Under the pieces are notes generated by a model, which was given only the letters and a program-made list of their open reading frames with translations, ran no database searches and was not told the origin of the DNA. This document shows, one piece after another, positions 11,626 to 64,000 of a stretch of DNA of 64,000 bases. Numbering within the stretch: the first letter of the stretch is position 1; each line of letters opens with the position of its first letter. The position numbers and the translations under genes are program-made. Origin of the DNA: Eledone cirrhosa (taxonomy: Eukaryota); contig OZ024752.1 in the NCBI GenBank assembly GCA_964016885.1, positions 24,924,001 through 24,988,000 on the forward strand. The letters are read 5' to 3'.

Positions 11626-13228
<1,603 letters not shown>

Positions 13229-13486: not shown

Positions 13487-13605
<119 letters not shown>

Positions 13606-13818
13606 CGTTTCTGAATTTGTTTAGCAAGATTCTTTATCTGAAATCGTGTGTTGAAACCGATATTGTTATACTTTGGGAGGGTCATGTTGCCAATAAGAAA
13701 CACACGCACCAGTTGCTTTCACTTCAATTTAATTTATTAAATATTTATAAATTTACAAATTTATAAATTTCTGGTTGGTTGGTTGGTTCCACAACCAGAT
13801 AGTTGTTTATATATATAT

Positions 13819-13863
13819 AGTCATAGTTCTTTCGTCACACACTCTGTGACCTCTTCAGTGACT
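13819..13863 (-). ncRNA. Minimal type I hammerhead ribozyme in the PLE-2 pLTR
   Basis: AGTCA-CTGAAGA-G-GTCACA gagtg TGTGAC-GAAA-GAAC-TA-TGACT; stem I AGTCA/TGACT. Confidence 0.75.
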
Positions 13864-14146
13864 GGGGATTTCTTTCTTCGTTTCTATGCCTTTCCTTTCT
13901 TCTATCCTACGCCATTTTGTTTGTGTGTGGGTTGCGTGCTCAGTTTGCGCATGCGCCACATCCGGGTGTCTGTGTGTGTTTGTGTTCATTTTTCTATTTT
14001 TCTATTTATATTTTTTTATTTGTTTGTTTATTTATTTATTTATTGTTGGTTGGTTGTTTGTTCTATGTGTGTGTGTGTTTTCATTTTGTGTGTGTTTTCA
14101 ATTGTAAGTTGTTTGTTCGATGTGTGTGTGTGTTTTCATTTTGTCC

Positions 14147-15580
14147 TTAATTGTAAGTTGTGATGTTGCTGTTCCACTCATATTTTCTATTTAATTTTGG
14201 TTTTAATTCTTTTATGCTTACTGCCTCTGTAATTTGCCTAAACATTGCGTCTTTCTTGTGTGTGGATTCTATTTTTATTTCTATGCTCTCTAATTTACCC
14301 CTGTGTTCTATCTTAGCATGTTGGTAGAGCACAGATGATTCTTTATTATCTTGGAGGTCTCGCCAGTGTTCATTTATTCGTTCCCCTATACTACGAGCTG
14401 TCTCACCTATGTACACTACATTTTTGTTTCTACATTGTCCTTCAGTACATCTTATGCTATATACTACATTTCTAGTTTTACAGTTAATATGGGGGCTTAT
14501 TTTACAGGTTATACATTTCTTATCTATACATGAGGGTCTTTGGAACGGGTATGTCTTGCTAATAAGTGTTTTTACGGAGGTACCAGGTCTTTCTACTATC
14601 TTAATATTGAGATTATGTTTCTTTAGGGCCCTTCTAAATTTGTAGGCTAGTTCGCCTCTAGGGGTTGTATTGATGAACATTACACTCTGGTATTTATTGC
14701 TATCATACCATGAGTTTATTCTATTGGCCTTGTTCTTAGTTCTTTCTATTCTATTCCAAAATTTGCTCCTATACAAGGGGCAGGTCCCATTTATGTCATT
14801 ATTTACCATTTTTTCCCATTTGGTTCTGGCTCCTTTATACACTCTGATTCTATCTCTCTGATTGTAGCCAGAGAACTGCATACGGTGGATGAAGTGTTGT
14901 ATGTGTCTCTCTAGTTCTTCGGGGTTGCACATGCGGGACACATTTCTCATCACCCGTACCAAATCCGCAATCAGTATGTTGATTTTGGTATGGTCCGAAA
15001 TGGCCGAGTTTCGGTGGATCAGATGTTTGGAAGTCATGGGTTTGGCATAATGGGAATGGAGGATTTGTTTTTGGTTGTTAATAGTATCTAACCAGAGCTC
15101 TGTGTCTAGTACAGGTAATCGATGGTTGGGGTGTCTACTTGGGTAGTCTATAGTAACTCTAATGCTCTGGTGGATGGAGTTTGCTATTTGCTGGATGCTT
15201 TCCATTGTGTTTTTCTCTAGTTCCTGACTGTTCTTTAGTGGGGGTGTCTTAACTACGATGTTTATATCATCTACGTAGCGGGAGTACATTATCAGGGTTA
15301 AGCTGTCTTCTAATTGTTCATTAAGTTTTTGTTTAAGTCTACTGTCCCACCATACCATGAATAAGTTAGCTATGTCGCCTGCAATGCTAACACCAATGGC
15401 TGCTCCCTCCTCTTGGGCATATGTTTTACCATTAAATTTGAACATATGTTCCTTAAGGGTTAGTTTTATGCTGGCCCCTACCGCATGTGCAATCATTTTC
15501 TTCAGTTCATCATGGTTTTCGGGTGTCCGTATGGCTCTGGTCCACCCGTTCCATCTATCTGTGTGGGTTTTCTTGGCCAT
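14147..15580 (-). CDS. PLE reverse transcriptase plus GIY-YIG endonuclease (5'-truncated, open frame)
   Basis: GAAIG..IAGDIANLFM, RYVDD, LPVLD, CxxC-rich linker, NVVYSIRC...YIGET.R..ERI.EH, PKLN; first ~34 aa of the ORF-track call come from the inverted arm. Confidence 0.9.
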   Translation of the reverse strand: MAKKTHTDRWNGWTRAIRTPENHDELKKMIAHAVGASIKLTLKEHMFKFNGKTYAQEEGAAIGVSIAGDIANLFMVWWDSRLKQKLNEQLEDSLTLIMYSRYVDDINIVVKTPPLKNSQELEKNTMESIQQIANSIHQSIRVTIDYPSRHPNHRLPVLDTELWLDTINNQKQILHSHYAKPMTSKHLIHRNSAISDHTKINILIADLVRVMRNVSRMCNPEELERHIQHFIHRMQFSGYNQRDRIRVYKGARTKWEKMVNNDINGTCPLYRSKFWNRIERTKNKANRINSWYDSNKYQSVMFINTTPRGELAYKFRRALKKHNLNIKIVERPGTSVKTLISKTYPFQRPSCIDKKCITCKISPHINCKTRNVVYSIRCTEGQCRNKNVVYIGETARSIGERINEHWRDLQDNKESSVLYQHAKIEHRGKLESIEIKIESTHKKDAMFRQITEAVSIKELKPKLNRKYEWNSNITTYN

Positions 15581-16150
15581 TGAGAAACAAAAATGTAGTG
15601 TACATAGGTGAGACAGCTCGTAGTATAGGGGAACGAATAAATGAACACTGGCGAGACCTCCAAGATAATAAAGAATCATCTGTGCTCTACCAACATGCTA
15701 AGATAGAACACAGGGGTAAATTAGAGAGCATAGAAATAAAAATAGAATCCACACACAAGAAAGACGCAATGTTTAGGCAAATTACAGAGGCAGTAAGCAT
15801 AAAAGAATTAAAACCAAAATTAAATAGAAAATATGAGTGGAACAGCAACATCACAACTTACAATTAAGGACAAAATGAAAACACACACACACATCGAACA
15901 AACAACTTACAATTGAAAACACACACAAAATGAAAACACACACACACATAGAACAAACAACCAACCAACAATAAATAAATAAATAAACAAACAAATAAAA
16001 AAATATAAATAGAAAAATAGAAAAATGAACACAAACACACACAGACACCCGGATGTGACGCATGCGCAAACTGAGCACGCAACCCACACACAAACAAAAT
16101 GGCGTAGGATAGAAGAAAGGAAAGGCATAGAAACGAAGAAAGAAATCCCC

Positions 16151-16195
16151 AGTCACTGAAGAGATCACAGAGTGTGTGACGAAAGAACTATGACT
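16151..16195 (+). ncRNA. Minimal type I hammerhead ribozyme in the inverted PLE-2 pLTR
   Basis: Same motif with one G>A change at the base of stem II. Confidence 0.72.
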
Positions 16196-16370
16196 ATATA
16201 TATATAAACAACTATCTGGTTGTGGAACCAACCAACCAACCAGAAATTTATAAATTTGTAAATTTATAAATATTTAATAAATTAAATTGAAGTGAAAGCA
16301 ACTGGTGCGTGTGTTTCTTATTGGCAACATGACCCTCCCAAAGTATAACAATATATATATATACATATAC

Positions 16371-18207: not shown

Positions 18208-18265
18208 GATATATATATATAGATATATATATATTACGCAAATATGACCCTCCCCAAATATAACG

Positions 18266-18302
<37 letters not shown>

Positions 18303-18561
18303 CATATATATTATATACATATATATACATATATATATATATACATATACACATATATATATATATACACACATATATATACACATATAATAATTGATAT
18401 TTTACTGAGTGATACTTTCTGATTTACAATCAATTAAATACGACTGGAACCGTGTCTGGAACTGTGTATTAAATTATATCAGGGACTTTTAACGTATGAC
18501 ACCGGTACGAGAGTTGAAACATTCTCACCGACACCGGGTACCTGCTGTCTTCATTATAGGA

Positions 18562-21501: not shown

Positions 21502-21766
21502 ATATATATATATATATTAATGAGACTATATATATAGTTTATATATATATAAATACAATATATATACGCACACACACATGTATATATATATAGATGTGTA
21601 TATATATATATATATAGATGTATTCATGTATATATGCTGTTTGAGCAACTCTTCCTCAATCATTCATAGATGTGAGTGTATATAATAATTATTTTGTATA
21701 ATGTGTCTATTTATAAATATGTATGAGTAGATGTGTGTATAACTCAGTAGATGTGTGTGTAACTCA

Positions 21767-22010: not shown

Positions 22011-23309
22011 ACTTATTTATTTTTCAGATTTTTTACACCGCCACTCCATTCTTAATTCACCCCACCCTCACTTATTTATTTTTCAGATTTTTTACACTGC
22101 CACCACTCTCTTAATTCACCCCACGCCCTATTTATTAAATTTTATCACATCTCTGCTGAAATATTATTTTAAGTGGTCGCATTCCTGCGACAATTTTCTT
22201 TAGACATTAAAAAACATTATAAATGACATAAAAAGTACATTACTAGAAATGCCAAATGTTATAAAATAAATAGGATGGGTTGGGGCCTCATGTAAACTAA
22301 ATGACTAATTCTGATTTTCTATCTCTGGTGAAATTTATATGTATATAAATATATATACATATGTATATATATATATATAAATATCTATACATATGTATAT
22401 ATATATATATAAATATCTATACATATGTATATATATATGTATATATATGAGCTCTTAAGTCCAGTAAAATAACCTCTAGTACCACAAACAATACACCCAG
22501 TCTTTGCTGTAAAATGGTTGATGAGAGGAAGGGCATCCAAACAGAAAAGAAAAAAATAGTGCTAAAATTATGGAAAGCCCTGCAAATAAAAATGTCCACT
22601 AATTGTGTCTACAGGCCTAATACAAGTCGTGTTATTGGGGTACCTAGGGTAGCCATGTTTGAGAATCCTTTGACTGTTATCAAGCAATTGCACAGCACTT
22701 TTCCCTTCCAGGTAGAAAGAACTGTTACTCAAGGAACTGTCAAGTTACACATCTCGGGTCTCAGACAATTACCATGTTAGAATGTCATATAAGAATGAAG
22801 TTCTTGGGTAAAGAGCTCCCAAGAGTTAGGAGGATATAATTTATAGAGCTTGCTGGAATACCACTACTTATATTGGAGAGAATAACTCTGGACAGGAAAG
22901 TTGATATCTACAGTTTATCAATATAGAAATATAAAATTTCCAATGTTAAATCTATCTCTGTTTCTAAAGTATTCTCCAATATCTCATACGGTTTCTTTCT
23001 TATTCCAGAATATCAGATGACATTGGGATAAAATTATTTTTTAATCTTGAATACACCCCCTCTATTTATCATTTCAAGACTAAAGCTTTTGATATGGAAC
23101 TCATATAACGGTGTTTATAGAAATCTATGGCAGAATTACTGTGAAATATTTCCTCAGAACTGTGTGTCTTGGAAAAGTATTGTTTCATCAGCATCTGAAA
23201 TATTTACAAGATGATTTTGAATCTTAACTAAACTTGGATCAGAAAGAAGTTTGCATCATCTTCAGATCTTGACTGAGGTCACAGTTGCCGGAAATATAGC
23301 AGAAGAAAC

Positions 23310-24656
23310 ATGGAAAATAAATTGAGTGAGAAGAAGATTAAATGTGAAACATTGTCTAAAGATATGGCTATTCCAGAAGAGATGCCAAAGCCTAGAGGAG
23401 AGAAGCCATATCACTGTGATGTCTGTGGTAAATCATTCTCTCAAAGTGGTCAGTTAACTCCACACAAACGTATACATACAGGAGACAAGCCATATCACTG
23501 CGTTATCTGTGGGGAATCATTCTCTATTAGTAGTACCTTAACTAGACACAAACGTATACATACAGGAGAGAAGCCATACCACTGTGATATCTGTGGTAAA
23601 TCATTCTCTCGTAGTGGTAATTTAACTTCTCACAAACGTATACATACAGGTGACAAACGATATCACTGTGATATCTGTAGTAAATCATTCTCTGAAAGTA
23701 GTACCTTAACTAAACACTTATGTACCCATACAGGAGATAAGCCATACCACTGTGATATCTGTGGTAAATCAATCTCTTGTAGTAGTACCTTAACTAGACA
23801 CAAACGTATACATACAGGTGAGATGCCATCCCACTGTGATCTCTGTGGTAAATCATTCTTTACAAATAGTGACTTAACTAGACACAAACATATACATACA
23901 GGTGAGAAGCCATATCACTGTGATATCTGTGGTAAATCTTTCTCTCAAAGTAGTACCTTAACTAAACACTTACGTACCCATACAGGAGACAAGCCATATC
24001 ACTGTGATATCTGTGGTAAATCATTCTCTCAAAGTAGTGCCTTAACTAAACACTTACGTATCCATACAGGAGACAAGCCATATCACTGTGATATCTGTGG
24101 TAAATCATTCATTACAAGTGGTGACTTAACTAGACACAAATGTATACATACAGGAGAGAAGCCATACCACTGTGATATCTGTGGTAAATCATTCTTTACA
24201 AGTAGTAACTTAACTAAACACAAACATATACATACAGGAGATAAGCGATACTGTGATATCTGTGGTAAATCATTCTCTGAAAGTAGTAACTTAACTAAAC
24301 ACTTACGTACTCATACAGGAGACAAGCCATACCACTGTGATATCTGTGGTAAATCATTCTCTGTTAGTAGTACCTTAACTAAACACTTACATACCCATAC
24401 AGAAGACAAGCCATACCACTGTGATATCTGTGGTAAATCATTCTTTACAAGTAGTGACTTAACTAGACACAAACGTATACATACAGGAGATAAGCCATAT
24501 CACTGTGATATCTGTGGTAAATCATTCTTTACAAATAGTGACTTAACTAGACACAAACGCATACATACTGGTGAGAAGCCATATCACTGTAATATGTGTG
24601 GTAAATCTTTCTCTCAAACTGGTCAGTTAACTTTCCACAAACGTAAGCACCGATGA
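23310..24656 (+). CDS. C2H2 zinc-finger protein, 15 tandem fingers, 448 aa, no recognisable effector domain
   Basis: Repeated [10 protein letters not shown]...L..H.R.HTG(E/D)KP; splice acceptor TTCTTATTCCAG at ~23008 upstream of the ATG. Confidence 0.92.
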   Translation: MENKLSEKKIKCETLSKDMAIPEEMPKPRGEKPYHCDVCGKSFSQSGQLTPHKRIHTGDKPYHCVICGESFSISSTLTRHKRIHTGEKPYHCDICGKSFSRSGNLTSHKRIHTGDKRYHCDICSKSFSESSTLTKHLCTHTGDKPYHCDICGKSISCSSTLTRHKRIHTGEMPSHCDLCGKSFFTNSDLTRHKHIHTGEKPYHCDICGKSFSQSSTLTKHLRTHTGDKPYHCDICGKSFSQSSALTKHLRIHTGDKPYHCDICGKSFITSGDLTRHKCIHTGEKPYHCDICGKSFFTSSNLTKHKHIHTGDKRYCDICGKSFSESSNLTKHLRTHTGDKPYHCDICGKSFSVSSTLTKHLHTHTEDKPYHCDICGKSFFTSSDLTRHKRIHTGDKPYHCDICGKSFFTNSDLTRHKRIHTGEKPYHCNMCGKSFSQTGQLTFHKRKHR

Positions 24657-25590
<934 letters not shown>

Positions 25591-36246: not shown

Positions 36247-37461
36247 TCTACCTGGAGTTGCGACCGAAAGATAGTAATAGCAATTGGAAAGACCAATGGA
36301 AACATTGTTTCCTCAGTCCGATTTGACGAAAGCCAATCGTTGCTTCCTGTGAATGTTTGCTACTTACTGCTCCTGTGCAATGGCCACATGTAAAACCTAT
36401 ATTCTTAGCTAACCTACCTGAGATCCCACTACATCTCTTGTGTACCCATTGTTTGTATTTCTAGCACACTGAGCAAGGCCATTTTTCTGAGGGGATCAGG
36501 GCCCTGTTTTCCCTTCTACTGATACTTGGCTGGCTAACCCAGACATAGTCCTAAATAAATGAAACACTGGCGGAGTCGTAGGGGTATCTAAGTGACATAC
36601 AGTATTTCTTGGGCATATTTTAAAACCTGATGGAGCCCATCACCTCACTCGTCTGAACACAATTGAGATCTGAATAAAACTTCAAGTGAAATCAGATATT
36701 GTATGGATTCATATAGAGTCGTAACTCCTGGTCTAAGCACAGCCGATTTCTCCCAGAGAAAGATAGAAAAGAAGAAAAAGATATAGAGGAACAATTGACT
36801 CCTACTAATAAAAAGATGGAAGTTAAACTGGTTTTGACATGTCACCAGGAGAGGAGATGATTTCTATGTTAGAAATTCCTATCAGAATGAATTTTTCACT
36901 AAACTGCCATAGAGCAGACCTCTCTAGAGATAGAAGGATAACATTTATAGAGCATGCTGGAATACCACTGTTTACATTGGAGATAATTACTCTGAACAGG
37001 AAAGTTGATATCTATAGTTTATCAATATAGAAATATAAAATTTCCTCTGTTAAATCTATCTCTGCTTCTAAAGTATTCTCTATTATCTCATACTGTTTCT
37101 TTCTTATTTCAGAATACCAGATGACATTGGGATAAATTATTATTTTCAATCTTGGATACATCACCTCTATTTATCATCATTTGAAGACTAAAACTTGTTA
37201 AATAGAACTCATATAACACTGTTTATATAAATCTGTCGTGAAATTACTTTGAAATATTTCCTCAACACTGAGTTTATTTTTTTTCACTATCAGATGATTT
37301 TGTATTTTAACTAAACTTGGATGAAAAAGAAGTTTGTATTATCTTCAGATATTAACTGAAATCACAGTTGAGGGAAATATAAAATATATATTTTTTAGGA
37401 ATATAATATAAAAAATATTACAAGAAAAACATTTGTATATTCTGTTGAAGAAAAAATTATA

Positions 37462-38256
37462 ATGGAAAATAAATGCAAAACACAATCGAAAATGTTTAGT
37501 ATTCCTGGTGAGATGCCAAAGGTTGGAGAAGAGAAGCCATATCACTGTGATATCTGTTGTATATCATTCTATGTAAGTAGTACCTTAACTCGCCACAAAC
37601 ATATACATACAGGAGACAAGCCATATCACTGTGATATCTGTGGTAAATCATTCTCTCAAAGTGGTACCTTAACTAGCCACAATCGTACCCATACAGGAGA
37701 CAAGCCATATCACTGTGATATCTGTGGTAAATCATTCTCTGAAAGAGGTAAATTAACTAAACACAAACAAACACATACAGGTGAGAAACTATATCACTGT
37801 GATAAGCCATATCATAGTGATATCTGTGGTAAATCGTTCTTGCAGAAAGGTCAATTAACTTCTCACAAACGTACCCATACAGGTGCGAAGCCATATAACT
37901 GTGATATATGTGGTAAATTATTCTCTCAAAGTGGTAACTTAACTAGCCACAAACATATACATACAGGAGACAAGACATATCACTGTCATATCTGTGGTAA
38001 ATCATTCTCTCAAAGTGGTACCTTAACTAGCCACAAACGTACCCATACAGGAGACAAGCCATATCACTGTGATATCTGTGGTATATCATTCTCTGGGAAA
38101 AGTAGCCTAACTACTCACAAACTTATACATGCAGAGGAGAAATCACAATGCATTGACATCAGTGATAAATCCTCTCAAAATTGTGAATTAATGAGAATAC
38201 AAATACATATCTGTGTAATATCTATGGTAAATCATTCTCTTTCAATGCTACATTAA
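37462..38256 (+). CDS. C2H2 zinc-finger protein paralog, 264 aa (6 intact fingers, 1 broken)
   Basis: Same finger consensus; paralogous upstream acceptor TTCTTATTTCAG at ~37112. Confidence 0.8.
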
Positions 38257-38367
38257 CTTCACACAAACATATACAGGTGGGAAGCCATATCACTTTGATA
38301 TGTTTGGAAAATATTTCTTTTAATGGAGCAATTTAACTAAATATATGCATAGATGAGGGAAACCATA

Positions 38368-38512
38368 TCATCATCATCATCATTTTATGTCCACTTTTCC
38401 CTGCTTGCAAGGGTGGGATGGGTCCTATTCACCACAGCATCTCTCCACTTGTCACGGTCCTTCGTCATCTCCACCGTGAGCTTCAGAGGTCTGCTCTCGC
38501 CACCTCCACCCA
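38368..38512 (-). mobile_element. Short RTE 3' end inserted in the ZNF2 relic-finger region
   Basis: (CAT)n tail then TTTTATGTCCACTTTTCCCTGCTTGCAAGG. Confidence 0.8.
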
Positions 38513-38536
38513 TGTAAATCATTTTCTAATTTTGGT

Positions 38537-39044
<508 letters not shown>

Positions 39045-39942: not shown

Positions 39943-40027
<85 letters not shown>

Positions 40028-40047
40028 CATTATTTACCATTTTTATC

Positions 40048-41030
40048 ATCAGAGTATATAGAGGAAAAAATGGGAAAAATGGTAAATAATGATACAAATG
40101 GGACCTGCCCCTTGTATAGGAGCAAATTTTGGAATAGAATAGAAAGAACTAGGAATAAGGTTAATAGAATAAACTCATGGTATGATAGCAATAAATACCA
40201 GAGTGTAATGTTCATCAATACAACCCCTACAGATGAATTAGCTTACAAATTTAGAAGGGCCCTAGATAAACATAAACTCAATATTAAGATAGTAGAAGAC
40301 CAGATACTTCCCTAAAAACACTTATTAGCAATACATCCCCTTTTCTAGAAATGTAGTATATAGCATAAGATGTACTGAAGGACAATGTAGAAATAAGAAT
40401 ATAGTGTACATAGGTGAGACAGCTTGTAGTATAGGAGAACGGATAAATGAACACTGGCGAGAGCTTCAAGTTAGAAAAGAATCATCTGTACTCCACCTAC
40501 ATGCTAAAATAGAACATAAGGGTAAATTAGAGAACATAGAAATAAAAATAGAATCTACACACAGAAAAGACACAATGTTTAGACAAATCACAGAGGCAAT
40601 AAACATAAATGAACTCCAACCAAAATTAAATAGAAAACAGGAATGGAATAGCAACATCACAACTTACAATTAAGGACAAAATGAAAACACACACACACAT
40701 AGAACAAACAACCAACCAGTAACATGTAAATAAACAAATAAATAAACAAATATAAACACACACAGACACCGGATGTAACACATGCGCAAACTAAGCACAC
40801 AACACACACAAAAATAAGATGGCGTGGGACAACAAAGGAGAGGCACAAAAACAAAGAAAAGAATCCCCAGTCACTGAAGAGGTCACAGAATGTGTGACGA
40901 AAGAACTTTGACAATATATGAACAACCGTCCGGTTGTGGAACCAACCAACCGGAAATTTATAAATTTAATTTATAATAAATTGGAGTGAAAGCAACTGGT
41001 GCGTGTGTTTCTTATTGGCAACATGACCCT
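40048..41030 (+). mobile_element. PLE-2 copy, 5'-truncated, decayed
   Basis: GTCPLYRSKFWNR and YIGET...PKLN; pLTR with HHR at 40869-40913. Confidence 0.9.
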
Positions 41031-41860
41031 CGGCTTAATTCGGGATGTCTGTTTGTTTACAAACAAACCTAGCATTATAATAAATGTTCGGTAAATCCAT
41101 ACATACATATATATATGTGTGCATGTATGTATATATATACATACTACTGTACGTCTGTATACATATATGTAATAGATAGCTAATAAGCTTGAAACAAGTA
41201 CAGCGTTCCTTTGTCAGTGTTGAACAAAAGGGCAACGATAGTTGTTTCACACTGTACGGCTTAATTCGGGATGTTTGTTTACAAACAAACCGGGCATTAT
41301 AATAAATGTTCGGTAAATCCATACGTACATATATATATGTGTGCATGTATGTATATATATACATACTACTGTACGTCTGTATACATATATGTATGTACGT
41401 ATACATACTTATATTTAAGTAACAGCCATACTAAGAGTGAGAAATGAAATTTCGTTTCATTTTTTCCATTTATCGTTTTTGGTGCGCCCGGCCGATTAAC
41501 TCACTCGATATGCAAATTAGGCTGTTCAGCCGTTAATATGCATAAGGAAAGTATATACTTTCAGACGTTCAATCATCTGGCAGGAAGGTATACGGTGCTG
41601 ACGATAGCTAATAAGCTTGAAACTAGTACATCGTTCCTTTGTCAGTGTTGAACAAAAGGGCAACGATGGTTGCTAAATATTGTACGGCTTAATTCGGGAT
41701 GTTTGTTTGTTTACAAACAAACCGAGCATTATAATAAATGTTCGGTAAATCCATACGTACATATATATATGTGTGCATGTATATATACTACTGTACGCAT
41801 GTGTGCATGTATACATACTACTGTACGTCTGTATACATATATGTATGTACGTATACATAC
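41031..41860 (+). mobile_element. Retrozyme-like tandem array of a ~428-nt non-coding unit
   Basis: CGGCTTAATTCGGGATG recurs at 41031, 41257 and 41685; unit carries an HHR and many hairpins. Confidence 0.78.
41592..41634 (+). ncRNA. Minimal type I hammerhead ribozyme, palindromic stem III
   Basis: ACGGTG-CTGACGA-T-AGCT aata AGCT-T-GAAA-CTAG-TA-CATCGT; predicted cleavage after GUA at 41628. Confidence 0.85.
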
Positions 41861-41887
41861 CTATATATATATATATACATATATATA

Positions 41888-42805
41888 TTGTTATACTTTG
41901 GGAGGGTCATGTTGCCAATAAGAAACACACGCACCAGTTGCTTTCACTTCAATTTATTATAATAAATTTATACATTTAGGAATTTATAAATTTCTGGTTG
42001 GTTGGTTGGTTCCACAACCAGATAGTTGTTTATATATATTGTCAAAGTTCTTTCGTCACACATTCTGTGACCTCTTCAGTGACTGGGGATTCTTTTCTTT
42101 GTTGTTGTGCCTCTCCTTTGTTCTGTCCTATGCCATTTTGTTTCTGTGTGTGTGTTGTGTGCTCAGTCTGCGCATGCACCACATCCCGGTGTCTGTGTGT
42201 GTTTATATTTGTTTATTTATTTGTTTATTTACATGTTACCGGTTGGTTGTTTGTTCTATGTGTGTGTGTGTTTTCATTTTGTCCTGAATTGTAAGTTGTG
42301 ATGTTGCTGTTCCACTAATATTTTTTATTTAATTTTGGTTGTAATTCTTTTATGTTTAATGCCTCTGTGATTTGTCTAAACATTGCGTCTTTTCTGTGTG
42401 TAGATTCTATTTTTATTTCTATGTTCTCTAATTTACCCGTATGTTCTATTTTAGAATGTTGGTAGAGTACAGATGATTCTTTACTATCTTGAAGGTCTCG
42501 CCAGTGTTCATTTATCCGTTCCCCTACACTACGAGCTGTCTCACCTATGTACACTATATTTTTGTCTCTACATTTCCCTTCAGTACATCTTATGCTATAC
42601 ACTACATTTCTAGTTTTAAAGTCTCTACATTTCCCTTCAGTACATCTTATGCTATACACTACATTTCTAGTTTTACAGAATCCCCATGGGAGCTTATTTT
42701 ACAGGTTATACATTTCTTATCTATACAGGGGGGGTCTTTGGAAAGGGTATGTCTTGCTAATAAGTGTTTTTACGGAGGTACCTGGTCTTTCTACTATCTT
42801 AATAT
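41888..42805 (-). mobile_element. PLE-2 copy, 5'-truncated
   Basis: GIY-YIG ORF 42315-42659; pLTR with HHR at 42040-42084. Confidence 0.9.
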
Positions 42806-43360
42806 ACATATGTCGGTAGATATACTAATTCTTTATAATTATCTCCAAATTATTTGTTGAGCAAAATTTGCCGAAATTACTACTGTGATTAATAGTAGTG
42901 GCTAGGCTCTGTCTTAATAGCACCCCCACTCCTGGCTGATTAACCTCAGTGTCACGTGATTGATTCTTTTGAATTTGCCACTTGACCAAGTAGGCAGTGA
43001 ATTTTTCAATGTCTTGGAATCTAGCCCCGCTCGCTTTTTTCCATCCACTGAATTATTTTTATATAAGTTCCCAGTGTCCCCGCATTGCCTGGAAGCTTAG
43101 CTGAGAATAGACTCCCTGATGACGTAAAGCTTCTTTATGGATACACTCCGTAACCATATTTATCCCCTTACAGAAACTAATTAGTTGGAGTGAAATTTTA
43201 GTAAGTAAGTCAATTTTCATAACTTTCTTATTTACGTCTTTCATATAATTGTTCTGCATCCCCTTGCATAGAACCACAAAGTTACTAAGACAAAACATAT
43301 ATTTGCTAGCATAGGTATGCATCTGTATACATATGTCGGTAGATATACTAATTCTTTATA
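42803..43360 (+). mobile_element. Retrozyme-like element: 523-nt unit plus 35-bp terminal direct repeat
   Basis: TATACATATGTCGGTAGATATACTAATTCTTTATA at 42803-42837 and 43326-43360; no credible ORF; central HHR. Confidence 0.78.
43111..43191 (+). ncRNA. Type I hammerhead ribozyme, palindromic stem III
   Basis: ACTCC-CTGATGA-C-GTAA...GGATA...TATCC..TTAC-A-GAAAC-TAATTA-GTT-GGAGT; predicted cleavage after GUU at 43186. Confidence 0.8.
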
Positions 43361-43849
43361 TATCTATATATATATAAAGTATATATATATATGAAGTATA
43401 TATATATATATAAAGTATATATATATATATATATAAAGTATATATATATATAAATTATGTATATATATGTATAAAGTATATATATATATATAAAGTATAT
43501 ATATATATATTGCAAATGTTCTGCTCACAATTATTGCTGTATTTCTCATTTCGCTAGCTTCCACAACACATTTATTTTTTTACCCTCATTTTCTCTACCA
43601 TGTTGCCTCTCTATCTGTCTATTTTTCCATCAGATGCTACAGGCCATGACTTGGCTATTATTATTGTTGCTGTATTCAATTCTATCGGTTATTTTGCCAT
43701 GACGGCGACACTCTCTCTATCTCTCTCTCTATGAGGGCTATACCCTCTCTCTCTCCCTCTCTCTCTATGAGGGCTATACCCTCTCTCTCTCCCTCTCTCT
43801 ATCTATCTCTAGCCACATATTACCTCCCTTTCGCTCTCAGCCATTCCTT

Positions 43850-46800
43850 CCTCACTCATCTTGAAGTTCTTGAAGAGATAAGACACACTTGACTCTGAAA
43901 GGCTAAAATGAATCACTTAGAGCTGCTTAACAACGTTCCAGCCATCCATCCACACAAATCTTTCAGATATCCCTCTATTTCCCCAATTGCAAATGTTCTG
44001 CTCACAATTATTGCTATATTTTTCACTTCGCTAGCTTCCACAACTCATTTATTTTTTTACCCTCATTTTCTCTACCATGCTGTCTCTCTATCTGTCTATT
44101 TTGCCATCAGATGCTACAGGCCATGACTTGGCTACCTACCTCACAATTTTCCTCCCACCCATCCCCTCACACCACCATAGCCTATTCGACCAATCAAACC
44201 TCAGCATGCTCCCCCCCACACTACCAACCCCAACAAACCCTGCATTTCTACTACTACCTAACTCTCTCCTCCCCCGTCCCAGCCCAACACACGCTGCCAT
44301 TATTACCACCACCACTGTTCTTCTAGCCCTGAATTTTCCTACCATTATGTATGGATGAGCTGAGAATAAATTGGAGCAACTCTGAATTAATAGATGAAAA
44401 TGAATATGAATCCGCGAGCTACTAAGCACCCATGTGAAGCTCCAATTCAGAGACAGGAAGCACACACATACACACACACCTGCAAAAATCGACCCTTCCC
44501 TGCGAATGTCGACAAATGCCAAAACTCCGAGTTGGTACCATCAATGTAAGCACAATGAAAGGAAGAGCAGGAGAAATCGTAGAGATGCTAGAGCGAAAGG
44601 AAATTGATGTTTGCTGTGTGCAAGAGACTAGATGGAGAGGAGAGTCTGTTAGAGTCCTTGTAGGAAAAAGTCAGTGCTACAAATTTTTCTGGGTGGGAAA
44701 TGACGATGGGATGGGTGGTGTAGGTATACTACTCGCTGACAAATGGGTAGATAAAGTAATCTCAGTGTACAGGATAAATGCAAGAATCATTAAACTCAGA
44801 CTAACCTGAATAAAACAATTACCACAATAATATCAGCTTACGCACCCCAATCGGGGTTGCCAGACGAACTTAAGGATAGGTTTTACGAGTCCCTAATGCA
44901 CATTACTGCTCTAACAAACGACAATCACTTCTTAATCATCGCAGGAGATTTTAACGGACACATAGGTAATCACTGTGGCGGCTTCAATAGAGTCCATGGA
45001 GGCCATTGGGTTGGCACAAGAAATGAAGGATTCAGACTTCTAGAATTCCGCGACGCAAATGACATGTCGATATGTAACACAAACTTCAAAAGACTACACA
45101 ACCACCTGATCACCTATAGATCAGGGGTGCATTCTAGACAGATAGATTTTATCCTCATCAGAGGACCCTCACGGTCAGAACTAGACGAACCTGGAAACAG
45201 AGGCCAACCTGGAGAAGAAAGATCTGGAAGCTGAAAGACCCCTCAGCTAGTAACAGATTTAAAGATATTTTACTCAACGCCTGCGACAGTCAAGAAGGAC
45301 AGATAGAGACATTCAATGTAGAAGAACACTGGGAGTTCCTAAAAAATAACTTACTAGAGGCGACGGATGAGATCTGTGGCTGGAGTAAGACCACAAGCAG
45401 GAGGAGAGTGACTTGGTGGTAGAACAATAAGGTAGATGAGGCAGTTAAGGCCAAGAGACAGGCATGGAAAGAATGGAAGAACGGGGGAAGCAGGGTACAT
45501 TACATAGAGACCAAGAGGGAAGCTAGGCGACAAGTATACTGAGCTAGGAGGGAAGCAGAGGATAGGAAATTCAAGCATGTTTTGCAACGTGAGGACCAGA
45601 AACAGGAGGTATTCAAGATTGCGAGGCAGTGTGTAAGAGAGAATTGTGATGTCATTGGAGAGAAGTGTATCCGGAATGATAAAGGTGAGCTTGCCCTCAC
45701 AAGTGCTGAGAAGAAAGATGCATGGAAGAGCCATTATGATAGATTACTAAATGAGGAGAATGCATGGGAAGAAGAGACCCTACCCCAAGTAGACCCTATA
45801 GGGGGGCCAGCAGTACAAGTCAGCAACAGCGTAATAAGTAAGACAATCAAAGATATGAAGATGGGGAAGGCAACCGGTCCATCGGGTATAGCTGCCGAGA
45901 GGCTGAAGGCATCTGGGTCTGTAGGTCACACTATAACCACACGTATTGTTAACCAGGTAATACTAGAAGGTGTCATACCAAACGATTGGTGCAGTAGCAT
46001 CATTGTCAACTGCTACAAAGGTAAAGGTGATGCACTAGATAGAGGAAACTATAGAGGTATAAAGCTGTTGGACCAGGTCATGAAAGTAACAGAAAGAGTT
46101 ATACCACAGTTGATTAGGGACCGGGTGAAACTAGATTAGATGCAATTTGGGTTTGTACCAGGAAGAGGCACCACTGATGCCCTCTTCCTTGTGAGGCAGT
46201 TACAGGAAAAGTACCTAGATAAAAGTAAGCCACTCTACCTGGCATTCGTCGATCTCGAGAAAGCCTTTGACAGAGTTCCACGTGCTATAATCTGGTGGGC
46301 TCTTAGAAAACTAGAAGTAGACGAATGGCTTGTGAAAGCTGTACAAGCCATGTATAGGGGAACAGTCAGCAAAGTTAGGATTAGCAATGAGTATAGCGAG
46401 GAATTTAGCGTACAGGTTGGTGTCCACCAGGGCTCTGTTCTTAGCCCTCTCCTGTTCATCATAGTCCTGCAGGCAATAACGGAGGAGTTTAAGACCGGAT
46501 GCCCATGGGAACTCCTGTATGCAGATGACCTCGCACTTATAGCTGAATCTATGGTAGAACTAGAGAAGAAATTCCAAACTTGGAAGCAGGGACTAGAAAG
46601 AAAGGGTCTCAAAGTCAACATGACAAAGACTGAGGTCCTTGTAAGTAGACGAGAAAACAGAACTCAGATCCCCCTCAGGGAAATGGCCTTGCTCAGTATG
46701 TAGGAAAGGGGTAGGTTGGAACTCCATTCTCTGCCTCAAATACAAACAATGGGTACACAAGAGATGTAGCGGGATCTCAGGAAGCTTAATTAAGAATGTA

Positions 46801-47756
46801 GGCTTCACATGTAGCAGCTGTGGTGGGACAGCAAGCAGCAAATAGCCACAGGAAACAAGTACCACCAATCTCTTGGAGGGCTCTGTATAAACAGTAGACA
46901 GCTTCTGCTATCTAGGTGACCGAATTAGCAGCGGAGGTGGGTTTTCAGAAAGTACAATAACTACGGTAAGAACGGGATGGAAGAAGTTCAGGGAACTACT
47001 GCCATTGCTAGCTGCAAAAGGCTTCTCTCTCAAAATGAAAGGCAGACTGTATGATAGGTGTATCCGAACAGCAATGTTACATGGTAGTGAGACCTGGGCG
47101 CTGAAGGTGGAAGACTTACGTAGATTAGAAAGAAACGAAGCCTGCATGCTCCGATGGATGTGTAATAGTAATATACGCGAACCGCAAAGCATAAATCAAT
47201 TGAGAGAGAGACTGAGAATAAGAGGAATCAAATGCTGTGTGCAGGAGAGGCGGTTGCGTTGGTATGGACATGTGATGCGTATGAAGGATGACAGCTGCAT
47301 AAAAAGGTGCAGAGCACTAGAAGTCAATGGAAACCGCGGAGTGGGGAGACCCAAGAAGACCTGGGATGAGATGATAAAAGCCGACCCTACCCAATTACAC
47401 CTCTCAAAGGCGATGACACACCACACGACCGTGACTTCTGGCGTCACGCAGTAATACAGAGTACCTGACCTCCCATATAGACAATATGCCCCCACACCCT
47501 CCCACTGCAAAGTGGTCGTGGAGGTGCCACGTCAAAAAAAGCACCTAGCCCACACTGTAAAGTGGACGTGTAGGCGCCACGGAAAAAAGCACCCAGCACT
47601 CACTGTAAATGAGGTTGGTGTTAGAAATCAAGCCAAAATCAGTTCCTGTATGAGCAAGGCATGGTTAGCCGACCAGACACTGCCCACAACAGGACAACCC
47701 ATCTAACCCATGCTACCATGGAATAACGGACGTAAAACGGTGATGATGATGATGAT
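43850..47756 (+). mobile_element. Near full-length RTE LINE (APE endonuclease and RT), disrupted
   Basis: LRVGTINV, CCVQETRW, SAYAPQ, AGDFNGH and QIDFIL endonuclease motifs; YADD RT; (GAT)n tail; 5' boundary approximate. Confidence 0.92.
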
Positions 47757-47838: not shown

Positions 47839-47875
<37 letters not shown>

Positions 47876-47923
47876 TGAGACTATATACATACATAAAATA
47901 TATATATAGTTTATATATATATA

Positions 47924-48995
47924 TTGTTATACTTTGGGAGGGTCATGTTGCCAATAAGAAACACACGCACCAGTTGCTTTCACTTCAATTTATTATATAT
48001 TTATAAATTTATAAATTTCTGGTTCGTTGGTTGGTTCCACAACCAGATAGTTGTTTATATATAGTCATAGTTCTTTCGTCACACATTCTGTGACCTCTTC
48101 AGTGACTGGGGATTCTTTTCTTTGTTGTTGTGCCTCTCCTTTGTTCTGTCCTACGCCATTTTGTTTCTGTGTGTGTGTTGTGTGCTCAGTCTGCGCATGC
48201 GCCACATCCGGGTGTCTGTGTGTGTTTATGTTTATTTATTTATTTGTTTATTTACATGTTACTGGTTGGTTGTTTGTTCTATGTGTGTGTGTGTTTTCAT
48301 TTTGTCCTTAATTGTAAGTTGTGATGTTGCTGTTCCACTCATACTTTCTATTTAATTTTGGTTGTAATTCTTTTATGTTTATTGCCTCTGTAATTTGTCT
48401 AAACATTGCGTCTTTTCTGTGTGTAGATTCTATTTTTATTTCTATGTTCTCTAATTTACCCTTGCGTTCTATCTTAGCATGTTGGTAGAGTACAGATGAT
48501 TCTTTATTATCTTGAAGGTCTCGCCAGTGTTCATTTATCCGTTCCCCTACACTACGAGCTGTCTCACCTATGTACACTATATTTTTGTCTCTACATTGTC
48601 CTTCAGTACATCTTATGCTATACACTACATTTCTAGTTTAACAGTTAATATGGGGGCTTATTTTACAGGTTATACATTTCTTATCTATACATGAGGGTCT
48701 TTGAAAAGGGTATGTCTTGCTAATAAGTGTTTTTACGGAGGTACCTGGTCTTTCTACTATCTTAATATTGAGTTTATGTTTATTTAAGGCCCTTCTAAGT
48801 TTGTAAGCTAATTCACCTCTAGGGGTTGTATTGATGAACATTACACTCTGGTATTTATTGCTATCATACCATGAGTTTATTCTATTAGCCTTGTTCCTAG
48901 TTCTTTCTATTCTATTCCAAAATTTGCTCCTATACAAGGGGCAGGTCCCATTTATGTCATTATTTACCATTTTTTCCCATTTGGTTCTGGCTCCT
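47924..48995 (-). mobile_element. PLE-2 copy, 5'-truncated, in (TA)n
   Basis: ORFs 48638-49207 (part) and 48308-48625; pLTR HHR at 48063-48107. Confidence 0.9.
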
Positions 48996-49326
48996 ATATA
49001 TATATACTTTATATATAAATACAATATATGAATGGACACACACATGTATATATAGAGATGTGTATATATAGATGTATTCATGTATATATACATACGTACA
49101 TTATACATAATTGACAAGATATTACCCCTCCACATCTGATATATACACTCATAATATAAGAATACGGATAGGCTATGTAGCCGGTAAAACCAAAAGGTGT
49201 GCAACACACATATTGATATAGTGTTTCACCAGCTCTTCCTCAATCATACATAGATGTGAGTGTGTATAATAAGTGAGTGTATATAATAATTATTTTGTAT
49301 AATGTGTTTATTTATAAATATGTATG

Positions 49327-52300
49327 AGTAGATGTGTATATAACTCAGTAGATGTGTATATAACTGAGTAGATGTGTGTGTAACTCAGAAAATGTGTGTG
49401 TAACTCAGTAGATGTGTGTATAACTCAGTAGATGTGTGTGTATCTCCGTAAATAAGTGTGTAACTCAGTAGATATGTATAACTCAGTAGATGTGTGTGTA
49501 ACTCAGTAGCATGTGTAACTCAGTAGACGTGTGTGTTACTCAGTAGATATGTATATAACTCGGTAGATGTGTGTATAACTCAATAGATGTGTATAACTCA
49601 GTAGATGTGTGTGTAACTCAGTAGTGTGTGTAACTCAGTAGATGTGTGTGCAACTCAGTAGATCGTGTGTAACTCAGTAGATGTGTGTGTAACTCAGTAG
49701 ATGTATGTGTAACTCAGAAGATGTGTCTATAACTAAGTAAATACGTGTATAACTCAGTAGCTGTGTGTGTAACTCTGTAGATGTGTGTGTAACTCAATAG
49801 ATGTGTATATAACTCAGTAGATGTGTGTGTAACTCAGTAGATGTGTATATAACTCGGCAGATGTGTATGTAACTCACTAGTGTGAGTAACTCACTAGCTG
49901 TGTGTGTAACTCAGTAGATGTGTGTAACTCGGAAGATGTGTGTATATCTCAGTAGCTGTGTGTGTATGTCAGTAGATACGTGTGTATCTCAAAAGATACG
50001 TGTGTAACTCAGTAGATATGTATATAACTCAGTAGGTGTGTGTATAACTCAGTAGATGTGTGTGTGACTCAGTAGATATGTATATAACTCGTTAGATGTG
50101 TGTGTAACTCAGTAGATGTGAATAACTCAGTAGATGGGTGTGTAACTCAGTAGATGTGTGTGTAACTCAGTAGATCGTGTGTAACTCAGTAGATGTGTGT
50201 GTAACTCAGTAGATGTATGTGTAACTCAGAAGATGTGTGTGTAACTCAGTAGATGTCTGTATAACTCAGTAGATGTGTGTGTAATCAGTAGATGTGTATA
50301 CAACTCAGTAGATGTGTGTGTAACTCAGTAGATGTGTATACAACTCAGTAGATGTGTGTGTAACTCAGTAGATGTGTATATAACTCGGTAGATGTGTATT
50401 TAACTCATTAGTGTGTGTAACTCAGTAGCTGTGTGTGTAACTCAGTAGATGTGTCTGTAACTCAGTAGATGTGCGTGTAACTAAGTAGATATGTGTGTAA
50501 CTCAGTAGATGTGTGTGTAATTAAATAGATATTTGTATAACTCAGTATATGTTTGTGTATCTCAGTAGATACGTGTGTAACTCAGTAGATATGTGTGTGT
50601 AACTCAGTAGTTGTGGGTATAACTCAGTAGATGTGTGTGTAACTCAGTAGATATGTGTATAACTCAGTAGGAGTGTGTGTAACTCAGTTGATATATGTGT
50701 AACTCAGTAGGTGTGTGTGTAACTCAGTAGATGTGTGTGTAACTCATTAGATGTGTGTGTGTAACTCAGTAGAGGTGTGTAACTCAGTAGGTGTGTGTAT
50801 AACTCAATAGATGTGTGTGTATAACTCAGTAGATGTGTTTGTAACTCAGTAGATGTGTGTAACTCAGTTGATATGTGTAACTCATAAGATGTGTGTATAT
50901 CTCAGTAGCTGTGTGTGTATATCTCAGTAGATACGTGTGTATCTCAGTAAATACGTGTGTAACTCTGTAGATATGTATATAACTCAGTAGGTGTGTGCGT
51001 AATTCAGTAGATGTATGTGTAACTCAGAAGATGTGTGTGTAACTCAGTCGATGTGTGTGTAACTCAGTAGATATTAGTATAACTCAGTAGATGTGTATAT
51101 GACTCACTAGATCTGTGTGTAACTCAGAAGATGTGTGTGTAACTCAGTAGATGTGTATGTAACTCAGTAGAATATGTGTGTAACTCTGTAGATGTGTGTG
51201 TAAATTAGTAGATGTGTGGATAACTCAGTAGATGTGTGTGTAACTCAGTAGATGCCTGTGTAACTCAGTAGATGTGTGTATAACTCAGTAGCTGTGTGTG
51301 TAACTTAGTAGATGTGTGTGTAACTCAGTAGATGTGTGTATAACTCAGTAGGTGTGTGTGTAACTCTGTAGATGTGTGTATAACTCAGTAGTTGTGTGTG
51401 TAACTAAGTAGATGTGTGTACCTCAGTAGATGTGTGTAACTCAGTAGATGTGTGTAACTCAGAAGATGTGTGTATAACTCAGTAACTGTGTGTGTAACTT
51501 AGTAGATGTGTGTGTAACTCAGTAGATGTGTGTATAACTCAGTAGATGTGTGTGTAACTCAGTAGATGTGTGTTTAACTCAGTAGATGCGTGTGTAACTT
51601 AGTAGATATATGTGTAACTCAGAAGATGTGAGTATAACTCATTAGATGTGTATATATCTCAGTAGATCTGTGTGTAACTCAGAAGATGTGTGTGTAACTC
51701 AGTAGATGTGTATGTAACTCAGAAGATGTGTGTGTAGCTCAGTAGATGTGTGTATAACTCACTAGATGTGTGTGTAACTCTGTAGTGTGTAACTCAGTAG
51801 ATGTGTGTGTAACTCAGTAGATGTGTGTGTAACTCAGTAAATGTGTGTGTAACTCAGTAGTGTGTATGTAACTCAGTAGATCTGTGTATAACTCAGTAGC
51901 TGTATGTGTAAATCAGTAGATGTGTGTGTAACACAGTAGATGTGTGTGTAACTTAGTAGATGTGTGAGTAACTCAGTAGATGTTTGTATAACTCAGTAGA
52001 TGTGTATATAACTGAGTAGATCTGTATGTAACTCAGTAGATGTGTGTATAACTCACTAGATGTGTGTGTAACTCTATAGTGTGTGTAACTCGGGAGATGT
52101 ATGTGTAACTCAGTAGATGTGTGTGTAACTCAGTAGTGTGTATGTAACTCAGTAGATCTGTGTATAACTCAGTAGCTGTGTGTGTAAATCAGTAGATGTG
52201 TGTGTAACACAGTAGATGTCTGTGTAACTTAGTAGATGTGTGAGTAACTCAGTAGATGTGTGTGAAACTCAGTAGATCTGTATGTAACTCAGTAGATGTG

Positions 52301-52445
52301 TGTATAACTCAGTAGATGTGTGTGTAACTCAGTAGATGTGTGTGTAAATCAGTAGCTGTGTGTGTAACTCAGTAGATGTGTGTATAACTCATTAGATGTG
52401 TATATAACTCAGTAGATCTGTGTGTAACTCAGTAGATGTGTGTGT
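49327..52445. repeat. 20-bp minisatellite (AACTCAGTAGATGTGTGTGT)n, roughly 155 units
   Basis: Visible directly; unit count estimated from length divided by 20. Confidence 0.97.
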
Positions 52446-52469
52446 ATATATATATATACATATATATAC

Positions 52470-63538: not shown

Positions 63539-64000
63539 ATGGAAAATATGTTGACTGAGAAGATTAAATGTGAAACACAATCTAAAGTGTTTAGTATTCC
63601 TGGTGAGATGACAAAGGTTAGAGAAGAGAAGACATATCACTCTGATATCTGTGGTAAATCATTCTCTGTAAGTACTACCTTAACTAGACACAAACGTATA
63701 CATACAGGTGAGAAGCCATATCACTGTGATATCTGTGGTAAATCATTCTCTGTAAGTAGCGACTTAACTAGACACAAACGTATACATACAGGAGAGAGGC
63801 CATATTACTCTGATATATGTGGTAAATCATTCTCTGATGGTAGTACCTTAACTAAACACAAACGTATACACACAGGAGACAAGCCATATCACTGTGATAT
63901 CTGTGGTAAATCATTCTCTTATAGTGGTACCTTAACGTCTCACATACGTACCCATAGAGGTGAGAAGCCATATCACTGTGTTATCTGTGATAAATCATTC
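63539..64000 (+). CDS. C2H2 zinc-finger protein paralog 3, runs off the window end
   Basis: [16 protein letters not shown]...[10 protein letters not shown] repeats; fingers 1 and 3 have C>S; acceptor TTTCATTTCAG at 63202. Confidence 0.8.

Follow-up and report, generated by a model that had tools for sequence, protein, structure and literature searches.

A 64,000-nt stretch of the Eledone cirrhosa genome (assembly GCA_964016885.1, contig OZ024752.1, positions 24,924,001 to 24,988,000 of the forward strand; herein the window, in whose positions coordinates are given) contains a composite locus in which copies of a Penelope-like element (PLE), here named PLE-2, meet two hammerhead-bearing repeats of 428 and 523 nt, here named U428 and U523. 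The original prediction described two such units lacking open reading frames (ORFs), each joined to a PLE-2 copy with no spacer, and all of the features that it named are found in the sequence (table 1). The first PLE-2 copy ends in ATGACCCT and passes directly into CGGC of a U428 repeat in the same orientation, where intact copies continue with CCCAAAGTATAAC and AATAT into (TA)n; comparison with the intact copies confirms that 13 nt are lost (18 if the target-matching AATAT is counted). As also predicted, the U523 unit stands head-to-head with the second PLE-2 copy through a TAT microhomology (PLE to 42805, U523 from 42803), and the free 3' ends adjoin (TA)n, at 41862–41888 and 43357–43510. 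The proposed 428-nt array is a U428 repeat, but one of about 1.9 units with an internal jump (unit positions 1–137, 347–428, a full unit and 1–161) and only one complete hammerhead. Because its two PLE copies are only 90% alike, we read the locus as two separate insertions that share one TA run. Each exact junction is single-copy among 40 scored candidates. A further short inverted U428 arm adjoins TA at 18241–18381.

Table 1. Features of the composite locus and of two further PLE elements in the window.
Feature	Position	Strand	Remarks
(TA)n target, left flank of insertion 1	39946–40027		
Inverted 17-nt PLE piece	40028–40044	-	Reverse complement of 40075–40091; vestigial second arm with non-canonical end; read from the sequence
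PLE-2 copy 1	40048–41030	+	5'-truncated; GIY-YIG end of ORF (to 40674) and pseudo-long terminal repeat (pLTR); cut 13–18 nt before short 3' end
PLE pLTR minimal type I hammerhead motif (candidate)	40870–40913	+	Commonest of 31 variants
U428 piece	41031–41171	+	Unit positions 1–137, fused to PLE end with 1-nt overlap
U428 main arm	41175–41869	+	Positions 347–428, full unit (41257–41684), 1–161; terminates at 161, a fixed end of the family
U428 type I hammerhead motif	41592–41634	+	Core CUGACGA; stem II of 4 bp and palindromic stem III of 2 bp; GUA site at 41628; same as the majority form of the family
(TA)n common to U428 arm and PLE copy 2	41862–41888		Tail-to-tail
PLE-2 copy 2	41885–42805	-	5'-truncated; short 3' end intact; internal 57-nt duplication at 42564–42675
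U523 arm	42803–43360	+	Full unit (42803–43325) and positions 1–35, stopping at 35, a fixed end of the family; meets PLE copy 2 head-to-head via TAT
U523 type I hammerhead motif	43111–43191	+	Core CUGAUGA; stem II extended and stem III palindromic; site GUU
(TA)n target, right flank of insertion 2	43357–43510		
Reference PLE-2 self-twin	13600–16340		Long end left, short end right; ORF with reverse transcriptase, Cx4CxxC linker, GIY-YIG with CCHH
Second PLE family	3950–5590	-	ORF on minus strand; no CCHH, CxCx5C-type linker; 'Hydra-like' by published description

Searches of the organism's own 3.0-Gb genome returned 1787 first-look candidates for U428 and 2284 for U523 (40 of each were scored, at 95–98% identity), and twenty evenly spaced 10-kb genome stretches held four U428 sites, one U523 site and no PLE-2; extrapolated to the genome, this would amount to tens of thousands of copies, with a wide error. 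The units have a GC content of 36–37% and code for no protein, the longest ATG-initiated ORFs on the circularised units being 58 and 87 amino acids. Their predicted circular folds are more stable than those of 25 dinucleotide shuffles (z -9.9 for U428, helped by a TA/CA-repeat hairpin, and -4.3 for U523), and arms longer than one unit (61 of 99 for U428 and 45 of 72 for U523, the longest 2352 nt) wrap back into their own unit and never into an ORF. A structure scan of both strands of the window gave three hammerhead hits, two of which are the unit motifs (at 41598 and 43116). Stem II of the U523 hammerhead covaries among 15 hand-picked variants, with six pairs changed on both sides (0 of 500 shuffles), and 95% of the cells in the hammerhead alignment are paired, as compared with 31–44% in slid controls; for U428, support comes from the motif and its conservation among copies. 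No Rfam hammerhead model matched, either at the gathering score across the whole window or at E ≤ 10 within 40700–43400, and the Rfam hits obtained, microRNA models on TA/CA repeats, were discarded as composition.

Local alignment of U428 and U523 to the PLE-2 end, to a 2.9-kb PLE-2 arm and to the terminal 226 nt of the Hydra-like PLE detected no significant similarity (z ≤ 1.5). The claim that the units are not pieces of the pLTR of this PLE is upheld by these alignments and by the arms that wrap into themselves; with neither ORF continuation nor pLTR similarity in the two PLE families compared, an origin of the units as the pLTR or 3' untranslated region of a coding PLE finds no support there. 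The units had also been called unrelated to one another, but they are not entirely so: a low-complexity stretch at the start sites gives a weak alignment (z 3.4). By these sequence characters, U428 and U523 would be non-LTR retrozyme families. Diverged U523 subfamilies (73–88%) occur at four loci (L036, positions 1–880; L269; L015; L212; L numbers denote analysed genomic loci), one of them arrayed over 540 nt, and stem II of their hammerheads shows compensatory changes.

The PLE-2 ORF contains reverse transcriptase (RT) motifs, a Cx4CxxC linker between RT and endonuclease (EN), plus, at the C terminus, a GIY-YIG with CCHH. The RT matches RVT_1 at E 1.8e-4, under the curated cut-off, and the Atlas neighbours of PLE-2, at 0.95–0.97, carry HTH_animal, RVT_1 and GIY-YIG on a minority or majority of members. 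The linker has the CX2-5CxxC form of the Neptune clade, a linker that is also common to Nematis, and the element as a whole has a pLTR with a hammerhead motif, a partial tandem, an inverted 5' copy and a tail on one end. Judged by its motifs and structure, PLE-2 is an EN+ PLE of the Neptune/Nematis type. It has two 3' ends, 60 nt apart (the short and the long end), both of which are internal sites because PLE RNA continues beyond the long end into the ORF start at two loci (L081 and L274). After position 1900, L081 holds the partial tandem with the 5' part of the PLE-2 ORF, in which an asparagine-rich CAA-repeat stretch recalls the N-rich inserts of rotifer PLEs. An inverted pLTR had been described for other PLE copies in the window; of the two other long PLE-2 copies, that at 13600–16340 is a twin, whereas that at 47862–49109 shows no inverted partner on its 5' side. 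There are also PLE mini-twins of 60–100 nt, consisting of just the two ends head-to-head (L005 1126–1191, L014 2140–2186, L072 2440–2518, and L238). In the second, Hydra-like PLE of the window, an inverted terminal arm (5375–5588) ends at TA and forms a twin; near 5420–5490 this arm contains a hammerhead-like motif with a long stem II and an altered first core base.

All three families leave the same footprint upon insertion. Like PLE-2, the two units have fixed 3' ends, at unit position 161 or 217 in U428 and 445 or 35 in U523, and every fixed 3' end sits at a UA-rich word of 4–5 nt that matches the target. The canonical end adjoins TA in 77 of 92 PLE arms, 71 of 99 U428 arms and 65 of 72 U523 arms. 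Head-to-head self-twins predominate when arms are classed by their 5' junction (PLE 50/74, U428 60/91, U523 47/70). After removal of duplicates, the self-twins in which both ends are canonical carry one of each kind in 26 of 27 cases for PLE, 21 of 23 for U428 and 21 of 21 for U523 (a further 10, 13 and 5 twins, respectively, have a non-canonical end). Among the first 100 of the 30,826 PLE-2 ends that an exact 16-mer count finds in the genome, 28 of 30 neighbouring -/+ pairs have one of each by eye, and the two exceptions are not simple twins. The arms of a twin are closer to each other than to those of other twins in 22 of 22 cases for U523, 19 of 23 for U428 and 11 of 16 for PLE; these shared variants would be expected of a single source RNA, or of gene conversion afterwards. 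Solo PLE ends are evenly split between short and long (19 v 19 of 40, by eye) and so are no guide to the roles of the two ends. Contigs under a second organism label cover all three families as well. In short, U428 and U523 insert exactly as PLE-2 does: as inverted, 5'-truncated twins with two fixed ends, one of each, at the same target.

Long-end PLE arms often stop no more than about 55 nt from the short start site (14 arms, by eye), as do two U428 arms ending at 217, and such stops look like the collision of two RTs on a shared RNA. The 5' truncation points show no evident clustering where the hammerhead would cut, and run-off from a cleaved monomer was accordingly discarded as the principal route.

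We propose that U428 and U523 are retrozymes that probably owe their mobilisation in trans to an RT/GIY-YIG protein of Penelope-like type, in the simplest case that of the abundant PLE-2. Such a protein would cut both strands of (TA)n, and both DNA ends would then serve as primers for reverse transcription from two internal positions of a single RNA, be it a circle or an uncut multimer; the two resulting 5'-truncated cDNAs would be joined by microhomology, with PLE–retrozyme fusions arising as rare by-products. The broader expectation, that the units are retrozyme-like and dependent on PLE-type machinery, is supported by their sequence characters and by the PLE insertion footprint that they carry.

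The direct fusions are few. A PLE partner is found at the 5' junction of one of 91 U428 arms and one of 70 U523 arms, the latter being the window itself, and a pattern search for U428 in inverted orientation no more than 400 nt from a PLE end identified 14 places, 10 seamless and four with TA between the partners. Mixed twins make up about 0.3% of short twins (about 10, as compared with an estimated 3,000 or so PLE self-twins of like size, on the basis of 10 of 30 twins per 100 ends). In one of the U523 cases (L084/L269), a PLE long-end arm of 39 nt meets an array of a U523 subfamily through a 7-nt microhomology, with 445 as the far end, as predicted; at L044, the RT region of a Hydra-like PLE is fused to U523. 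To assess tail-to-head fusions, 45 of 46 matching PLE ends were examined; eight prove to be genuinely cut at the base seen in the window, and two of these eight join U428 (the window and L092). L014 was rejected as a head-to-head fusion, abutting the long end of a complete mini-twin PLE, as was the apparent overlap at L252, which is really tail-to-tail across a few TA; L140, with a 140-nt spacer of unrecognised sequence, was left out of the counts. Long composite DNA queries for chimeras returned the best single-family copies, with no enrichment.

One explanation of these fusions, to which we give somewhat less than an even chance, is that they are two-step accidents: independent insertions into the same (TA)n, after which the TA and some flank disappeared, either at the 5' join or through a subsequent deletion between palindromic twins. 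It concerns the junctions only and is compatible with PLE mobilisation. Solo arms often have their 5' end joined straight to a non-TA flank (15 of 91 for U428, 12 of 70 for U523), and a later insertion into TA beside a PLE, losing the TA, would therefore look alike; tail-to-tail neighbours across TA are common (nine pairs), TA is kept between the partners in four of the 14 candidates, six of the eight PLE ends cut at the window breakpoint run into unrelated DNA, mixed twins are greatly outnumbered by self-twins, and L005 and L014 fit nesting. Conversely, seamless candidates outnumber TA-separated ones, the second PLE–U428 fusion (L092) shares the PLE breakpoint of the window, and the ends of mixed twins appear non-independent, a bias absent from the nine tail-to-tail neighbours. 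This last point is based on a small sample and a post hoc grouping that follows the weak, low-complexity alignment between the U428-161 and U523-35 ends: PLE-short occurs with U428-161/U523-35 four times and PLE-long with U428-217/U523-445 five times, with two exceptions (Fisher p 0.06; 0.17 for U428 alone), and we treat the association as a lead, no more.

The original prediction instead held that both junctions record a single insertion event in which the PLE RT changed template between the PLE and the retrozyme RNA, a reading that we retain tentatively, as possible but short of even. In its favor, the joins are seamless, with 1–7-nt overlaps that resemble self-twin joints, and the breakpoint 17–18 nt upstream of the short start site recurs (2 of 8), in a region in which short long-end arms likewise come to an end; for rotifer PLEs, both template jumping and capture in trans have been proposed (PMC3846280, in part). 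However, the prediction made in advance for single events, that U428-161 pairs with PLE-long and U428-217 with PLE-short, failed in 7 of the 9 resolved cases (two complementary, seven same-class, one unresolved), although the advance end labelling held in both U523 mixed twins (2/2). Nearly all copies are self-twins or solos, and two-RNA events must be the exception because self-twins apparently derive from one source molecule; of the two cases with the same breakpoint, moreover, one is the query itself. A head-to-head junction is in any case not a template jump in the usual sense and requires two separately primed arms. For head-to-head fusions such as that at 42803, we lean slightly toward two ends primed on different RNAs, with later insertion or deletion nearly as probable, and for the tail-to-head fusion at 41030, a jump onto PLE RNA and a nested insertion that removed the PLE end have about even claims. 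A more elaborate scheme, which we consider doubtful, is that circular ribozyme RNAs unrelated in sequence are recognised through their structure by the PLE protein, which primes both (TA)n ends at two role-specific sites and occasionally loads two RNAs; role-paired mixed twins would result (PLE-short with U428-161/U523-35, PLE-long with U428-217/U523-445).

A carrier other than PLE-2, whether the Hydra-like PLE, another PLE family from whose pLTR the units descend or, at the lowest odds, the long interspersed nuclear elements (LINEs) of the window, which we take to be RTE-type, is an unlikely alternative in our view. LINEs are not known to make the two-end twin pattern. The Hydra-like family does end in TA, forms a twin in the window and is fused to U523 at L044, our comparison of the units took in two PLE families only, and 24 of 57 frog retrozyme families are homologous at their termini to known repeats, nearly all of them PLEs (10.64898/2026.07.22.740005, in part). 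On the other hand, neither unit resembles the Hydra-like terminal 226 nt, PLE-2 is very abundant, and the two-end twin pattern is a PLE signature in published work (PMC8557442 and PMC11167929, each in part). PLE-2 thus appears the likeliest carrier, with the Hydra-like family or some other PLE possible. That the junctions are assembly artefacts is very improbable: inverted repeats are difficult to assemble, and among the listed reads and contigs none bridges either junction (reads of four runs over 40700–43340 being dominated by other copies), but the same junction class occurs at 11 other loci with differing breakpoints, and both junctions have plausible microhomology and canonical outer ends.

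Several points weigh against mobilisation of U428 and U523 by the PLE-2 protein. The analysed loci are top-scoring matches and are skewed to young, long copies, and gene conversion between inverted repeats could have given twin arms their shared variants. Both unit hammerheads deviate from the usual form, with unpaired bases where G10.1–C11.1 is usual and a GUU site in U523, and neither matches Rfam; 8 of 9 frog retrozyme dimers did not cleave (10.64898/2026.07.22.740005, in part). Local alignment finds no sequence common to the units and PLE-2 that could account for recognition. Among the fusions, the advance pairing prediction for U428 failed, L005 and L014 resemble nested insertions, and a pattern search detected no inverted U523 at distances of up to 400 nt from a PLE end, both known U523 fusions lying outside the reach of the pattern (such wide-gap patterns do work, because the U428 counterpart gave 14). 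The carrier is also not pinned to PLE-2, because a second TA-targeting PLE family fuses to U523. Mobilisation in trans by a PLE protein nevertheless remains our preferred reading. The elements themselves belong to a known kind, and the direct fusions, which are real but rare, are the weaker part of the case.

The broader question is which enzyme mobilises animal retrozymes. PLEs were named as likely carriers in 2020 (PMC7229834, in part), and a 2026 preprint describes retrozymes as non-autonomous PLE dependants on the basis of co-occurrence and pLTR homology (10.64898/2026.07.22.740005, in part); the case for PLEs has been built on the hammerheads that both kinds of element possess, on their co-occurrence and, for frogs, on homology to pLTRs. 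The two retrozyme families described here lack detectable pLTR homology, yet many of their copies bear the complete PLE footprint, and their start sites are known to the base. The carrier question thereby becomes testable in vitro, with a concrete protein, a pair of RNAs, a target and sites at which initiation would be expected. The rule of one end of each kind, and the variants that twin arms have in common, likewise limit the ways in which PLEs could build their inverted structure. If the role-paired, two-RNA scheme were true, it would name the animal retrozyme carrier, explain the inverted-repeat-plus-tail structure of PLEs and provide a small cargo RNA for targeted (TA)n insertion. We found no account of retrozyme insertion ends or of PLE–retrozyme fusions in a literature search that covered subscription journals thinly.

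The window holds other features as well. C2H2 zinc-finger arrays with an 84-nt period, some decayed to 80 nt, occupy 23277–24915, 37399–39002 and 63625–64000, and a 20-nt minisatellite of 158 copies spans 49327–52446, with a two-copy seed at 21726–21766. Decayed LINE copies with apurinic/apyrimidinic endonuclease (APE) and RT fragments are found at 44440–47450 and at many other positions, and 11966–12400 is presumably a Tc1/mariner-type transposase fragment, to judge from its motifs.

Among known systems, U428 and U523 most closely resemble the animal non-LTR retrozymes (PMC7229834, in part), with which they share non-coding, low-GC tandem monomers, a type I hammerhead with a short palindromic stem III, a strongly self-paired predicted circle and co-occurrence with PLEs. 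They differ in monomer length (428 and 523 nt, as compared with about 170–400 nt), in occurring mostly as dispersed head-to-head twins of 1–3 units and in their variant hammerheads; circles and cleavage have been shown for the published retrozymes. Li, Clavereau & Pollet (2026; 10.64898/2026.07.22.740005, in part) likewise treat retrozymes as non-autonomous PLE dependants, but mostly in vertebrates and with a suggestion of local tandem amplification, whereas U428 and U523 lack detectable pLTR homology and display an insertion footprint instead.

That footprint is one already described for PLEs, whose signature is an inverted, 5'-truncated copy with a tail on one end (PMC8557442, in part). The anole PLE (PAc) uses two internal RT start sites in vitro, both strands being cut and extended, and its tail lies between these sites (PMC11167929). 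PLE-2 shares with EN+ PLEs of the Neptune and Nematis types and with PAc the C-terminal GIY-YIG with CCHH, the CxnCxxC linker, the pLTR hammerhead, the inverted 5'-truncated copy, the one-end tail, two internal RT start sites and an AT-rich target, although its tail measures 60 nt rather than 30–40 (PMC8557442 and PMC11167929, each in part). The start sites described here have a UA word in common with the target, whereas initiation by PAc occurs without homology (PMC11167929), and U428 and U523, unlike EN+ PLEs, encode nothing. Finally, non-autonomous elements of Chlamys, MRC1 among them (PMC8557442, in part), and the pLTR-flanked trans capture in Adineta (PMC3846280, in part) also involve non-coding or host sequence moved by PLE proteins, with head-to-tail copies; those cases share 3'-end or pLTR sequence with an autonomous partner, which U428 and U523 do not detectably do.

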